Below, in pieces: positions 447 to 14,652 of a stretch of 64,000 nucleotides of DNA (position 1 is its first letter; the number at the start of each line of letters is the position of its first letter). The DNA comes from Candidatus Uhrbacteria bacterium (GTDB lineage: Bacteria > Patescibacteriota > Patescibacteriia > GWA2-47-26): contig JACPJN010000007.1 in the NCBI GenBank assembly GCA_016187515.1, positions 140,336 through 204,335 of the forward strand. The letters run 5' to 3'. The notes beneath the pieces are model-generated. The model was not told the origin of the DNA, did no database searches, and saw nothing but the letters and a program-made list of their open reading frames with translations. The position numbers and the translations under genes are program-made.

Positions 447-1037
447 TTAAAATCCCAGCTCTTCCCCCACCCTCTTATATTCAAAAATCTCCGGATGCTT
501 GCCAAACCAATGCTTGATTTCATGCTCGGCTTCTTCCGGGGTCTCTGACACATGCAGTATGTTCTGCACCGCCCGTTTTTCTTTATTAGCTATCGCGGCA
601 GAATCACCTGAAAAATCGCCGCGAATCGTGCCCATCTCCGCAAGCACCGGCATGGTGTTCCCGGCAAGTTTGCGCACTACATCAATGGCGTGCGGACCTT
701 CAACTACGGCTTTAACCAGCGGGTAAGATACCATAAAATCAATAAGCCAGCCGCGCACCATTTTCCCAATCGCGAGTTTGTCCGCCGTGCCAAATTCTTT
801 GCGCGCATTGTAGCCGTACTTTTTATAGGTCAACAGGGTTTTTTCGCCAAGCCGCGCGATCCACTTTTCATCTTTGGGATAATGATCGTCAATCTGCTTA
901 CGCGTCGGCTTAAACATTTGCAGTGCGACAATTTTAAGTCGGCGCTGCTCAATGCGGGAGATTACCTCGCCAATCAGACCCTTGGCCACGCCGTCGGGTT
1001 TAATCAGCACGAATACGCGTTCTTGCTTATGGTTCAT
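447..1037 (-). CDS. ndk: Nucleoside diphosphate kinase
   Basis: ERVFVLIKPDGV, GTIRGDF and NILHVSE (catalytic His); start placed at MNHKQ. Confidence 0.95.
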   Translation of the reverse strand: MNHKQERVFVLIKPDGVAKGLIGEVISRIEQRRLKIVALQMFKPTRKQIDDHYPKDEKWIARLGEKTLLTYKKYGYNARKEFGTADKLAIGKMVRGWLIDFMVSYPLVKAVVEGPHAIDVVRKLAGNTMPVLAEMGTIRGDFSGDSAAIANKEKRAVQNILHVSETPEEAEHEIKHWFGKHPEIFEYKRVGEELGF

Positions 1038-1068
1038 ATGCCAAATACCATACCACACCCACAAGAAC

Positions 1069-1097
1069 TTGACAAATTCCGCCCACTATGATAGTGT
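1069..1097 (+). promoter_or_regulatory. Sigma70-type promoter divergent from ndk
   Basis: TTGACA 1069-1074, 17 bp, TGa-TAGTGT 1092-1097. Confidence 0.65.
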
Positions 1098-1103
1098 ATA
1101 AAC

Positions 1104-1557
1104 ACGTAAGAAAGGACCGGCGCGGGTCCGCAAGGGCCTGGCTGGTCTAAGGGTTGTATGCGGAGGAGTCCGCCTGAACCTTCGCACAGTGGGGTAAAGA
1201 GACACTAAAAATCAACAGGTGGAATCAACAGATGGGTAAAATTGCCGTCTCACCCGGTCCTGTCGCGCGCAGGGCTGAAACCTCATACTTTCTTCGCACC
1301 TTCACCACAGTCGGGCATGGGAGTCATGGGTGTTGTCGGGTGGCAGCACACCTAGCGGGACTCCCGGAGAATGATTAGCAGTCACAATGCGCCTGACTGT
1401 GGCGCCACCTTTGTGGAACAGTTGTGGAAGCGGCGTAACCCCCTGGAGGAAGCATGCAGCACAAGGCCAGGGCCCAGCGTCCGTGCGCCACATCGTTGCA
1501 TTCCACATTCCCCCCCGAACCGTCACTGCGGCGCGGGGGGGGTTTTCTTTATTTTTT
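1104..1557 (+). ncRNA. Candidate ~450 nt multi-domain structured RNA, family unrecognised
   Basis: Promoter and terminator bound a region with no convincing ORF; many stems with G-U pairs favouring the + strand, a GCAA tetraloop hairpin at 1114-1148 and a long-range stem 1305-1402. Confidence 0.6.
1510..1557 (+). terminator. Intrinsic terminator
   Basis: C-run/G-run stem (CCCCCCCG...CGGGGGGGG) followed by TTTTCTTTATTTTTT. Confidence 0.7.
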
Positions 1558-2652
1558 CCGCTGCACGCGATATTGAAGCGCGGTTCCATCACTTTCAAAC
1601 ACCACATCCCCATCCTGATCATTTCTCAAAATCTCCACCCCTTGCTGTTTTAGTCGCCAGAGAGTTTGAAAATGCGGATGGCCAAAACGATTTTTGCGGC
1701 CGGATTGAATTACCGCATACTTTGGCGCCACCGCTTGCAAAAATTCTTTACTGGTTGAGGTTTTTGAGCCATGATGCCCGACTTTCAACACGTCTGAGCG
1801 CAGACGTGAGTCATCAGTTATCAGTTCACAGTTCACAGTTTTGTTTTGACACTTCCGTGAACCGTGAACCGACGACTGTGGACTAAGCAACGCGTCCTCC
1901 ACCCCTTCTTCCGCATCTCCGGTAAATAGAAAACTGGTTTTGCCATAAGTAAGTTTAGCCGCAATTGAGGTGGCGTTCAATCCTCCATCCGCTTCGCTTT
2001 TCTCGGCAATACGTTTTCCCGAAAGATCTTCTTGCGGCCAAAGAATTTCAAGTTTAGGTATTGGTATTTGTGATTCGTTTGGAAATTGGGAATTGTCTCC
2101 CTTTGGGAGATCTTCCGTAGGGAGAGAAATTGGAAATTCTTGGCTGGCTTTTGCGACCGCCATTGGGATCTCTCTATTCTTTATCTCTTTTAGCCACTCC
2201 AGATATTCGTCGGTGGTGTGCAGGACTCCGGTGGCCAATACCTGCTTCACGGTAAACCGTCGCAACACCTCAATTTGTCCCACGAGATGATCCGCGTGCG
2301 GATGGGTCAAAATCAGGAGTTCAATGGTCCGGTCCCAAAACGGTAAAGTGCGGCCCAATTTTTCCACCACCCGCGCGGATGGCCCGCCATCAATGAGTAC
2401 ATCAAATCCCTGCGCGGTACGCACATGAATCGCATCCCCCTGCCCCACATCATAAAAATGCACCGTAAGCGGCGCACCATCAGGGATGCCTTGAAACCAC
2501 AGCACGGAGGAAAGCGCGAAAATCCCCCAGACCCAGCGTGCCGCGGTACGATACTGGGGCGGTACCAGTGATCGGTACCCTTTGTAGATTGTCTGCTTCA
2601 GATCCGCCGCCGCTTCAGTTAATCGGGTTAAGCGAACTGCCGTTTTGAGCAT
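1549..2652 (-). CDS. ComEC/Rec2-type metallo-beta-lactamase-fold domain protein (stand-alone)
   Basis: DVGQGDA, THPHADH, LFTGDAE, LKVGHHGS and NRFGHPH motifs; two repeat-derived inserts. Confidence 0.92.
   Translation of the reverse strand: MLKTAVRLTRLTEAAADLKQTIYKGYRSLVPPQYRTAARWVWGIFALSSVLWFQGIPDGAPLTVHFYDVGQGDAIHVRTAQGFDVLIDGGPSARVVEKLGRTLPFWDRTIELLILTHPHADHLVGQIEVLRRFTVKQVLATGVLHTTDEYLEWLKEIKNREIPMAVAKASQEFPISLPTEDLPKGDNSQFPNESQIPIPKLEILWPQEDLSGKRIAEKSEADGGLNATSIAAKLTYGKTSFLFTGDAEEGVEDALLSPQSSVHGSRKCQNKTVNCELITDDSRLRSDVLKVGHHGSKTSTSKEFLQAVAPKYAVIQSGRKNRFGHPHFQTLWRLKQQGVEILRNDQDGDVVFESDGTALQYRVQRKK
1806..1884 (-). repeat. In-frame heptamer/inverted repeat insert in MBL gene
   Basis: (CAGTTCA)n ... 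(GTGAACC)n in inverted arrangement; encodes SPQSSVHGSRKCQNKTVNCELITDDS. Confidence 0.65.
2053..2139 (-). repeat. In-frame composite repeat insert (heptamers plus TCTCCC palindrome)
   Basis: TTGGAAA-like units around TCTCCCTTTGGGAGATCTTCCGTAGGGAGA; encodes FPISLPTEDLPKGDNSQFPNESQIPIPK. Confidence 0.65.
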
Positions 2653-2734: not shown

Positions 2735-3316
2735 TTAAATCTTGAGCTTGCGCAAAAAACGTACGCTGCATTTTTTACAATCCACCTCTAAAACCTCGAA
2801 GAAACGCTCCAATCCGATATATTTCAACAATTCATCAATGCTGGGACGCGGATCACAGCGTGAAATCCAGATACTCCGCTGCAGCATGATAAATCCCCCC
2901 TGCTTTAGTAGCCGCCGAAAAAATTCCCGATGCGCCCGCTTGGATTCCGGCACATCATACATCGCCAGCCACAGTCGGCCATCGCGTTTTTTCTGATCGG
3001 GATTGCGCATCTGCATGAGAAACTGCAGTCGGAGAACTTCATACTTACCCTTGGCAGTTAGTTTGACAAGCTGCCGCTCGCCTTCTTTCACGGTTTCAAT
3101 ATAATGCTGATCCTTCAGATGCTTAATGCGCTGCCGCAGCCAATCGCGGTCGCGTAGGCGCCGCCGACGCTCTCGTTCACGGTAACCCCCCAGTCCTATC
3201 GCACTTTGACCGCGGCGCACATAACCCGGGATGTGGATAGAATCGGGGTTCATGTTGGCGGCCTGTAATTCCAGCAACGCAATCTGAAATTCCATTAATT
3301 CTAGGCGTATACTCAT
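2735..3316 (-). CDS. PaaX-like transcriptional regulator (wHTH plus Cas2-like domain)
   Basis: IKHLKDQHYIE...VKLTAKGK wing, then WLAMYDVPESKR...FIMLQRSIWIS; start at MSIRL just after TGtGGTACAAT -10. Confidence 0.85.
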   Translation of the reverse strand: MSIRLELMEFQIALLELQAANMNPDSIHIPGYVRRGQSAIGLGGYRERERRRRLRDRDWLRQRIKHLKDQHYIETVKEGERQLVKLTAKGKYEVLRLQFLMQMRNPDQKKRDGRLWLAMYDVPESKRAHREFFRRLLKQGGFIMLQRSIWISRCDPRPSIDELLKYIGLERFFEVLEVDCKKCSVRFLRKLKI

Positions 3317-3347
3317 ATCCTTCTGATTGTACCACATTAACTGCGCG

Positions 3348-3381
3348 GGAGCTATAATAAGCGATCGCTTATTATAGCTCC
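3348..3381. promoter_or_regulatory. Perfect 34 bp palindrome, putative operator
   Basis: GGAGCTATAATAAGCGATCGCTTATTATAGCTCC; same TAAGCGATCGCTTA core as 2672-2703; covers the regulator's -35 region and the comEC stop codon. Confidence 0.75.
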
Positions 3382-4916
3382 GATTCCTCTGACTGAATAA
3401 GCGGCGATTTTTGCTGCGGATTTTCCTGACGTTTCCATTGCCGCATTGTCCAGACGATCGCACAAAATAAAACTACGGCGGATAAAAAAGAAAGACGAAT
3501 TTGAAAAACGCCAAATTGGGCCAGCCACTCCGCGATACGCACGATGTATTGAAGCGGCACGCGCGCGACCAGGGCAATCCCCAAGCCGAAAGGACGCCAG
3601 AGGAAATCCGCAACTACGGAGAGGAATCCCAGCGCCATCACCGCCGGAACCATGGGCACCACCAGAATATTAGCGAACAGCGAAAAGGGGCCCAAAATGC
3701 CGGTGTGATAGAGCAAAAGCGGAGTGGTAAACAGCAGGGCCGCCACTGAAGCCGCGCCAGCTTTGCGAATTTCCCAGACCTCGGGAAGCTTGCGCACCAG
3801 AGTACGCCGCGCAATATCATCAGCAAAATATATCAGCGCGATGGTGGCGACAAAAGAAAGCAAAAATCCTAAATCAAAACGCAGCAGCCGAGGATTAACG
3901 GCCAGCATTATCACGCCGGCCAGCGCGAGAGCATTGCGCGGATGGCGCGCGCGGCCAACTCCCTGCGCCAGAGAAACCAGCGAGCCCATAATCGCGGCGC
4001 GCACCACCGAGGATTCCGCGCCCGTGGCCAGCACAAAGACCAAAATCAAAAGCAGAGTTACGGGCAAGGCCTGTTTACGAGTCAGCCCCACATACACCAA
4101 GCCCCCCACCAGCACCCAAGAAATAATGGTGATGTTATAGCCGGAAAGCGCGGTGATATGGGCCAGACCAGTGGCGCGGAAGGCCTCTTTCAGCTCGCGC
4201 GTTAGACCAGAAGTATCGCCATAAAGAATTCCCGCCAGCAGTCCCCCGTAGGGATCGGGGAAAAGAGATTGCAGGCGAGAGTGGAAAATTTCACGGATTT
4301 GATAAAGTACGCCTCTCACCCCGCTCATCTCCTTAAGTAGCGCGGGGGCTAGTCCCCCGCTTGGCGGCACATTAAATGCCGCGCTACGCATCACAGAAAC
4401 ATGTTCCGGAAACGCGCAGGAAACATGAACTCCTTCGCGCACCGCCCAACGTTCATAGAAGGAGAGCGGCTGGGGTGCGCATTTAATAAAAAGTTCATCG
4501 CCAAAACGATACTCCGGGTATGTTGGCGCGTTAAGCAGCAGCTTACCGCTGGGGGCGGACAGTTGGAGGATATAGGCCGTGTTTTTTTCTCGCTTCCGGG
4601 GCGGACTATCCACTAAGCCGCGAACGGATATTTCCTGTCCAACATAGTAGGCAATATGCCGGGCGTTAATAACCGGTATAACTTGCGCGAAACGAAAAAC
4701 GCCAAGAAAAAATATTCCCAGCGCCAAGATCCCAATGACGGTTAATCGGGAACCCCCGAAGCTAAAACCGAGCGCGGATAAAACGCCACAGCCAATAAAT
4801 AAGGCGTACCAGATAAACGGCGGAGTAATCAGCCGATCCGCGGCGATCAAGGAGTGCAGTCCAATGCCGGCGATAAACGCGCAGCAAAAAGCAAAAAATG
4901 CCTTGGATTTGGTCAT
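3372..4916 (-). CDS. comEC: ComEC competence protein (DUF4131/OB plus competence membrane domain)
   Basis: FRATGLAHITALSGYNI, SVVRAAIM, GFLLSFVAT and LFANILVVP; start placed at MTKSK. Confidence 0.93.
   Translation of the reverse strand: MTKSKAFFAFCCAFIAGIGLHSLIAADRLITPPFIWYALFIGCGVLSALGFSFGGSRLTVIGILALGIFFLGVFRFAQVIPVINARHIAYYVGQEISVRGLVDSPPRKREKNTAYILQLSAPSGKLLLNAPTYPEYRFGDELFIKCAPQPLSFYERWAVREGVHVSCAFPEHVSVMRSAAFNVPPSGGLAPALLKEMSGVRGVLYQIREIFHSRLQSLFPDPYGGLLAGILYGDTSGLTRELKEAFRATGLAHITALSGYNITIISWVLVGGLVYVGLTRKQALPVTLLLILVFVLATGAESSVVRAAIMGSLVSLAQGVGRARHPRNALALAGVIMLAVNPRLLRFDLGFLLSFVATIALIYFADDIARRTLVRKLPEVWEIRKAGAASVAALLFTTPLLLYHTGILGPFSLFANILVVPMVPAVMALGFLSVVADFLWRPFGLGIALVARVPLQYIVRIAEWLAQFGVFQIRLSFLSAVVLFCAIVWTMRQWKRQENPQQKSPLIQSEESEL
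4318..4367 (-). repeat. In-frame GC-rich hairpin insert in comEC
   Basis: GCGGGGG-CTAGT-CCCCCGC stem; encodes PPSGGLAPALLKEMSG. Confidence 0.45.
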
Positions 4917-4919
4917 GGG

Positions 4920-5050
4920 GTGCGAATTGCGAATCAAACCCGAATTTACGAATCTGCGAATTCGAAATTCGCAAATTCTCCGCCCAAGGCGCTGTGCCCG
5001 CCTTGGGCTGGGGATCCGCCTCGGGCGGAGAACCTCATTCGTTATTCGCA
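4920..5050. repeat. Intergenic composite repeat (GCGAATT-like units plus nested palindrome)
   Basis: CGAAT/ATTCG units around TTCTCCGCCCAAGGCG...CCGCCTCGGGCGGAGAA. Confidence 0.7.
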
Positions 5051-5053
5051 CCC

Positions 5054-13687: not shown

Positions 13688-14652
13688 ACGCTCTTGCGCT
13701 GCTCTTGAATTACGGATTCCAGGATATTATCCAAAGTCGCCGTAGTTTGCCACCCCGTCAGCGCGCGTAATCGCTCCGTAGACGGAAATCTGCGCTGCAT
13801 ATCTTCAAATCCCTCTTCGTAGGCCTTCTCGTACGGCACATAAATAATCTTGGATTGACTCTTAGTCATGGCAATGACCTTTCGGGCCAGCTCCTCAATA
13901 GTAATTTCGTCTTCATTGCCAATGTTAAAAACCTTGCCGACCGCGGCCGGGTGGTCCATGAGCTTCACCATGGCCGCGACCGCGTCTTTGACATGTAAAA
14001 ATGAACGCAACTGTTTTCCGGTCCCAAATACGGTCAGGTCTTTTCCTTGCAGGGCTTGCTCGACAAACCGCGGTACCACCATGCCATAAACCCCCACTTG
14101 TCGCGGTCCCACCGTATTAAACAATCTGATGATCACGGTCGGCACGGCTTTTTCCTTAAAATATATGTAAGCCAACAATTCATCAATCGCCTTGGCGGTA
14201 GAATACCCCCACCTACTTTTCAAAGGCGACCCTAAGATACGATCGTCATCTTCGCGCAAGGGGCCATTGGTATTTTTCCCGTAAATCTCCGAGGTGGAAG
14301 CCACCAATACTTTTTTATGGTACCGATGCACCATCTCCAGGACAATTTCACTGCCTTTGATATTGGTAATCAACGACTCCAGGGGCTTCGCGACCACGAG
14401 CTCCACTCCCACTGCCGCGGCCAGATGATATACCTGGTCAGCGCGCTCAACCAGCTTATCTACCAACTGCTCATTGAGAATCGTGCCGTTTACAAATTGG
14501 AAACGCTCCTGATTCACCAACGGTTCAATATTGCGCAAACGACCGGTCGAGAGATTATCCAAGACCGTAACGCGATCACCGCGCGCGATTAATGCGTCGG
14601 CAAGATGCGAGCCGATAAATCCTGCTCCGCCGGTAATTAAAACATGGGTCAT
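13684..14652 (-). CDS. NAD-dependent nucleotide-sugar epimerase/dehydratase
   Basis: ITGGAGFIGSH, STSEIYG, YSTAK and RLFNTVGPRQ. Confidence 0.92.
   Translation of the reverse strand: MTHVLITGGAGFIGSHLADALIARGDRVTVLDNLSTGRLRNIEPLVNQERFQFVNGTILNEQLVDKLVERADQVYHLAAAVGVELVVAKPLESLITNIKGSEIVLEMVHRYHKKVLVASTSEIYGKNTNGPLREDDDRILGSPLKSRWGYSTAKAIDELLAYIYFKEKAVPTVIIRLFNTVGPRQVGVYGMVVPRFVEQALQGKDLTVFGTGKQLRSFLHVKDAVAAMVKLMDHPAAVGKVFNIGNEDEITIEELARKVIAMTKSQSKIIYVPYEKAYEEGFEDMQRRFPSTERLRALTGWQTTATLDNILESVIQEQRKSV

Follow-up and report, generated by a model that had tools for sequence, protein, structure and literature searches.

Discoveries of large RNAs in bacteria are rare, and the few families known so far (raiA, OLE, ROOL and GOLLD) show unusual structures. 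These families are defined by conservation and covariation across many genomes. The raiA motif RNA occupies one locus per genome and binds KhpA/KhpB (PMC12968392), and OLE, ROOL and GOLLD self-assemble (PMC12286853). Judging from search results, we found no description of large structured RNAs of this kind in CPR bacteria, and the literature on orphan sRNA emergence yielded nothing relevant. Lineage-specific orphan sRNA genes form a general class, each running from its own promoter to an intrinsic terminator.

Here we characterize a unit of this anatomy in the window, a stretch of 64,000 nt (G000:C6:140336-204335) from a 1.215-Mb genome in 10 contigs that is rated 100% complete. Genome size and the lack of SRP54 suggest a CPR bacterium. 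A first-pass annotation, made from the letters alone, had read the unit as an unrecognised large ncRNA. Its anatomy and its plus-strand-specific fold agree with that reading, as do the missing coding signal and the failure of Rfam to match it; the searches returned no homologue, so covariation adds no support, and the case rests on one sequence. Like raiA (RF03072), OLE, ROOL and GOLLD, the element stands alone, contains many helices, spans several hundred nucleotides and has no known biochemical job; unlike them, it has neither an Rfam match nor a second member. The resemblance is one of anatomy only, and the element belongs to none of these families. With lineage-specific orphan sRNA genes it shares its single copy, its position between conserved genes and its absence from the relatives searched, but it is longer and more heavily paired than the usual base-pairing sRNA and has no significant complement in the genome. 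We read it as a structured RNA that stands alone and is restricted to its lineage, and that probably serves as a scaffold or decoy for binding a protein. We give this reading about an even chance of being right.

The spacer between ndk and the MBL gene

The element lies between two minus-strand genes: ndk on its divergent flank (447..1037; PF00334, E 9.7e-33) and, on its convergent flank, a gene with a metallo-beta-lactamase (MBL) fold (1549..2652; PF00753, E 3.3e-13), which is located downstream of comEC (3372-5051; PF03772). The distance from the MBL stop to the ndk start is 511 bp, versus about 100 bp in the family genomes G003 and G004. An ndk match is present in four of the five family genomes; one of them, G001, shows no MBL match within 1.5 kb of ndk, and another, G005, carries a 435-codon ORF at this site, which reads by eye as CoA-transferase-like. 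At L011:1033-2340, where the gene order matches that of G005, a 435-codon gene equipped with a promoter and a terminator separates the MBL gene from ndk. By sequence comparison, the stretch between the MBL gene and ndk is thus an insertion, and the gene found at the same site in G005 shows that the spacer accepts unrelated cassettes. The genome is carried by four groundwater DNA runs, all from one study; no RNA run is listed among its carriers. Contigs of all four bridge the locus with zero differences and no variant in the element, which rules out misassembly, although that one study is possibly the source of the genome itself and the runs are no independent support.

The insert could also be without function as an RNA and form a cis-acting junction, in which a divergent promoter and a terminator flank hairpin-prone DNA; any transcript would be a by-product, and the effect, if there is one, would be the uncoupling of ndk from the comEC-MBL run. 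We consider this unlikely. It would account for the failure of every search to find a homologue, for the small internal duplications of the element and for the fact that the site takes other inserts too, as in G005. It sits less well with an element that is single-copy in the genome (the best other own-genome matches span 14-39 nt at E >= 0.5) and bears no terminal repeats, features that also set it apart from MITEs and foldback elements.

The neighborhood also contains palindromic sequences. Within the MBL gene, positions 1816-1877 hold a palindromic in-frame insert made of 7-nt words, which yields chance microRNA matches, and the MBL genes of relatives contain other, differing inserts. A short palindrome occurs at 2669-2703 and at about 3350-3380, on both sides of a PaaX/Cas2-like gene (2735-3340), and is seen again in further contigs of the same runs; it is possibly an operator or a small repeat.

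Promoter, terminator and reading frames

The sigma-70-type promoter of the predicted RNA (1069..1097, plus strand) consists of a TTGACA -35 box at 1069-1074, a 17-nt spacer and an extended -10 element at 1089-1097, in which TG at 1089-1090 precedes TAGTGT at 1092-1097. The first-pass annotation had described this arrangement (TTGACA-17-TGaTAGTGT) as near-consensus. The sequence is as reported, but the -10 box matches TATAAT at only three of six positions; this is why a consensus scanner did not list the promoter. It nevertheless fits a pattern that is enriched about 18-fold in this genome, the -35/extended -10 combination giving 141 matches versus 5-12 in five shuffles, and by its sequence it would belong to the genome's dominant promoter class. 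Promoters of the same general kind precede the rnpB and tRNA genes. Transcription would start near 1104.

Back-to-back with this promoter is that of ndk (1047..1075, minus strand), whose -35 overlaps the -35 of the RNA promoter. Because the two share this region, they are likely to compete, which would be a side effect of the insertion; the same double use of one -35 box is what a cis-acting junction would display. By eye, ndk also has its own promoter-like site in G003, G004 and G005, and the plus-strand -35 is absent from the MBL-ndk spacers of three relatives.

At the other end lies the intrinsic terminator that the first-pass annotation had proposed (1509..1556, plus strand); it borders directly on the convergent MBL gene, at that gene's stop codon. 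It is formed by a hairpin at 1509-1542 (about -26 kcal/mol, z -4.1) and a T-rich tail at 1543-1556 that exists on the plus strand only; the first six bases of the tail fall outside the MBL frame (by eye), and the scanner did not list this hairpin either. Since both neighbors lie on the minus strand, the simplest use of the terminator would be to end the transcript from the 1069..1097 promoter, the only plus-strand promoter-like site upstream that it could serve. Its orientation is wrong for stopping MBL transcription, which argues against the cis-acting junction. Promoter and terminator together predict an RNA of about 450 nt (1104..1550, plus strand).

No reading frame within this unit is convincing, in line with the original description: in coding score the small ORFs resemble non-coding frames, Pfam matches none of the five frames examined, and six-frame translations of the element, run against the genome and the compared loci, never improve on E 0.04. 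A 48-codon ORF (1232..1378, plus strand) is probably no gene. Its score in an in-frame hexamer model is -0.006, versus 0.64 for ndk and 0.38 for the MBL gene, and 26% of 1566 off-frame chunks score higher. The 48-aa peptide matches only itself among 5.8 billion proteins, a search confined to candidates of 26-84 aa, and finds no match in Atlas; no relative was found, so the ORF gives no signal of codon-type conservation.

The unit could still be the mRNA of a small protein, with a long structured leader ahead of the 48-codon ORF, or the relic of a cassette made of promoter, small ORF and terminator. Such cassettes are common in this genome: there are 63 promoter-terminator units outside long ORFs, and 32 of them contain an ORF of at least 30 codons that is led by an SD site. 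The 48-codon ORF also scores above 9% of 394 real-gene chunks. However, the example cassettes mostly show an AGGAG-type site soon after the start, and no start codon follows the purine run of the element at 1108-1115; the 48-aa product is without a homologue in the size-limited protein search, and a 40-codon ORF that begins in the loop of the third domain scores -0.30 and runs through the terminator with no stop before it. We regard the small-protein reading as distinctly improbable.

Fold of the predicted RNA

The whole region folds with z -3.56 on the plus strand and -0.90 on the minus strand (z -2.3 once the terminator is removed), and the RNA would fold firmly in two domains and more loosely in a third. 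Domain 1 (1108..1298, plus strand; z -3.5 versus 0.1 on the minus strand for 1104-1296) is a multibranch 5' domain with firm hairpins at 1114-1148, 1230-1250 and 1255-1277, and it contains a 13-nt tandem duplication at 1210-1235. The stem at 1114-1148 has the features first noted for it (8+7 bp, a GCAA loop and four G-U pairs, p 0.98-1.0), and the stem at 1255-1277 is predicted equally clearly (p 0.98). A stem drawn at 1218-1254 is predicted with confidence only in its inner part, the 6 bp of 1230-1250. The stem at 1149-1182 and the closing helix 1108-1114/1288-1294 are present in the best fold of 1100-1304 alone (-78.3, with rivals within 3.5-4.6 kcal/mol) and are lost in the full-length ensemble, where the bases of both pair otherwise; the closure of domain 1 is ambiguous, with rival folds near.

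Domain 2 (1305..1402, plus strand) is predicted with pair probabilities of 0.93-1.0. A 12-bp closing helix (1305-1316/1391-1402, p 1.0) surrounds an 8-bp helix (1318-1325/1359-1366, p 0.93), both as had been proposed; the inner helix is capped by an apical hairpin, the 3' junction is rich in purines, and the interval 1300-1404 gives z -4.8 on the plus and -3.3 on the minus strand. Domain 3 (1412..1507, plus strand), which the original description lacks, is a long irregular hairpin whose loop carries part of the GGAGGA/ATG start of the 40-codon frame; with z -0.8 on the plus strand versus 0.7 on the minus strand (1403-1510), it is no more stable than shuffles. The claim of a G-U strand asymmetry holds across the element, with 111 pairs at p>0.8 (16 of them G-U) on the plus strand versus 45 (four G-U) on the minus strand. 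Promoter, terminator, several helices and the strand asymmetry thus survive from the first-pass annotation, and its fold of domain 1 survives in part.

For the interval 1104-1404, which was picked after looking at the data, the fold reaches z -4.4 on the plus and -0.7 on the minus strand, and none of 150 shuffles attains its strand energy difference. The same test singles out the two rnpB genes of the genome (1/40 and 0/40 shuffles) but misses some RNA genes (36/40 shuffles for tmRNA, 28/40 and 3/40 for two 6S-like rods), and is no clean marker of RNA genes. We also surveyed 200-nt windows, with eight shuffles each. Among 149 random gap windows, a set that includes real RNA genes and small ORFs, 27% fold at z <= -3 when the better strand is taken, and 8.7% also show an asymmetry of at least 2.5, versus 10% and 2.4% of 82 coding windows; of five windows placed across the element, only the first passes z -3. 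The fold of the element ranks towards the top of the distribution for this genome, yet it is not unique, and because the spacers of the genome are hairpin-rich, it is by itself weak evidence. The frequency of folded gaps is what one would expect if the element were a cis-acting junction; on the other hand, foldback inserts fold on both strands and the element does so on the plus strand only. Selection at the RNA level, which had been argued from the G-U pairs, may have shaped the fold, but this suggestion is drawn from a single sequence, and hairpins are frequent in the spacers of this genome.

Known RNA families, relatives and a possible role

Nothing in the window reaches the Rfam gathering score, be it OLE, ROOL, GOLLD or another Rfam 15 family, and the element itself draws only a 12.8-bit chance match to a snoRNA at E <= 10. 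The absence of RNase P, tmRNA and SRP hallmarks, noted from the start, extends to all profile and motif tests of the element. ARAGORN finds no tmRNA (a tRNA-like domain with a CCA end, and a tag frame) in the window; the genome's copy is at C6:64713-65151, and its local alignment to the element is at chance level. RF00169 and RF01854 give no SRP match, and PF00448 (SRP54) was not found in the genome. The raiA model RF03072, which comprises P1, P3, P4 and two pseudoknots, finds nothing in the genome or the element. RF00013 likewise finds no 6S RNA in the genome, and 6S RNA is a single rod of about 190 nt with a central bubble, whereas the element is multibranched and about 450 nt long. We dropped the readings as a group I intron, T-box or CsrB-like RNA, which have no Rfam support (motifs judged by eye). 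The element shows no local likeness to the tmRNA, the rnpB genes, the 6S-like rods or an unassigned unit on contig C7 of the same genome.

Type A RNase P RNA (RF00010) is similar to the element in length, promoter class and degree of strand-specific folding; the element differs in having no P4 core and no profile match, and two intact rnpB genes are present elsewhere in the genome. One could imagine a third, heavily degenerate RNase P RNA that kept a specificity-domain-like fold and lost the catalytic core, given that the genome already has two rnpB genes and that several short purine-rich words of the element stand in roughly RNase P order (by eye). Diverged CPR RNase P RNAs have been reported, and Lui et al. 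required a 5-bit threshold to find some of them (PMC8172020). For the element, however, RF00010 gives no match at E 10 even on a 321-nt core, and two P4-like words cannot pair. A degenerate copy is already largely refuted by the failure of an HMM built from 36 rnpB sequences of the class, which gives no match at E 20, and by two ordered-motif tests at shuffle level, in which 160/300 and 559/1000 shuffles score as high; we hold it to be highly improbable.

The two intact-looking RNase P RNA genes are located at C5:30832-31355 and C4:about 171030-171817 and are about 58% alike by alignment. The C4 gene is greatly lengthened by insertions, and both genes keep the 5' core once a long insertion in the C4 gene is allowed for. 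Two RF00010 matches, several of them weak, occur in eight of 150 genomes searched.

The element's status as an insertion would also suit an RNA left behind by a mobile or defence module that lost its protein gene, either retron-like or a nuclease guide RNA, and reverse transcriptases are present in 87 of 201 class genomes. We think this very improbable. No reverse transcriptase (PF00078) was found in the genome, the neighbors of the element are ndk and the MBL gene, and the RNA runs straight into its terminator, leaving no relic of a gene. With nhmmer, the flanking sequences of 30 RT loci show no likeness to the element, nor do those of 27 of these loci with the domain 2 model, where the best match (14 bits) lies downstream of an RT. 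The element has no Rfam match to guide RNAs of TnpB, IscB or Cas nucleases.

Homologue collection with BLASTN and nhmmer, which the first-pass annotation had suggested, found none in related genomes, and with zero homologues a covariation alignment is impossible. In BLAST searches of genome sets that are overlapping samples, 100 relatives gave one 22-nt match that is a mere promoter before a protein gene, 0/400 class genomes and 2/400 phylum genomes gave matches (both short chance matches within coding genes), and phages and plasmids gave chance words only. Single-sequence covariance models of domains 1 and 2 hit 0/149 relatives, with a sensitivity limited by candidates drawn from a sequence-based first look; they found nothing in G003, and the domain 2 model found nothing in 20 selected loci. 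Nhmmer returned no match from 80 metagenome ndk loci plus the compared genome loci. Run unfiltered on 915 kb of the about 1.0 Mb of G003, it again gave no match to the element and recovered, as positive controls, two other RNAs of the genome at E 2e-38 and 1e-9. In G004, which is 77% complete, the search took in 612 kb (contigs 1-80 of about 140) and met neither the element nor either control, and G001, G002 and G005 were partly covered. Six DNA patterns matched viral contigs 1, 10, 0, 0, 0 and 4 times, none of the matches extending, two translated-frame scans of these contigs found no match, and such a scan of species genomes gave one chance match among the at least 600 candidates listed.

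A conserved housekeeping RNA should have appeared in the family genomes searched. The nearest ndk anywhere is 76-78% identical, and the metagenome scan on ndk reached only 76%; at this distance no same-genus genome is available for comparison, and a young or fast-evolving RNA would stay invisible.

Taking the element as a lineage-restricted structured RNA, we propose that an RNA gene was inserted into the MBL-ndk spacer in opposite orientation and that RNA polymerase would start near 1104 and stop near 1550. The resulting RNA would most likely act in trans as a folded protein-binding surface, not by target pairing or catalysis, which is the weakest step of the proposal. We prefer this mode because the RNA is predicted to be mostly locked in helices, lacks a significant complement in the genome and matches no catalogued ribozyme. 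A bolder version, possible but on the whole doubtful, would make it the first known representative of a new class of large structured CPR RNA: abundant, 450 nt long, with a selected three-domain fold and a specific partner, its gene being among several additional RNA genes that this 1.2-Mb genome retains. In the boldest form, which strikes us as barely credible, domain 1 would bind tRNA through a module that resembles the RNase P specificity domain and has no catalytic activity; profiles do not support such an ancestry, but convergence on such a fold is possible. If such RNA units are real, small CPR genomes would gain and lose RNA genes quickly.

Other promoter-driven units came to light during these searches. 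At C7:86449-86929 (minus strand), a unit of about 480 nt runs from a promoter to a terminator-like hairpin (z -3.0), with no Rfam match and no homologue in 250 class genomes. A short unit on the minus strand of G003 contig C20 (about 13700-13870, counted from the locus end) has a promoter and would yield a structured RNA of roughly 150 nt that a 9-bp stem closes; its -10/start region is much like that of the studied element, and no sequence homology was found. Two rod-like RNAs of the genome, each with promoter and terminator, have homologues in G003. The one at G000:C4:324255-324430 (plus strand; G003 homologue at E 1e-9) draws from Rfam only a weak Ms1 match (21 bits). The other (G000:C6:139400-139610, minus strand), about 180 nt long, missed by Rfam and 6S-like by shape, lies about 730-940 bases before the window start, and its G003 homologue (E 2e-38) lies at a similar distance downstream of ndk.
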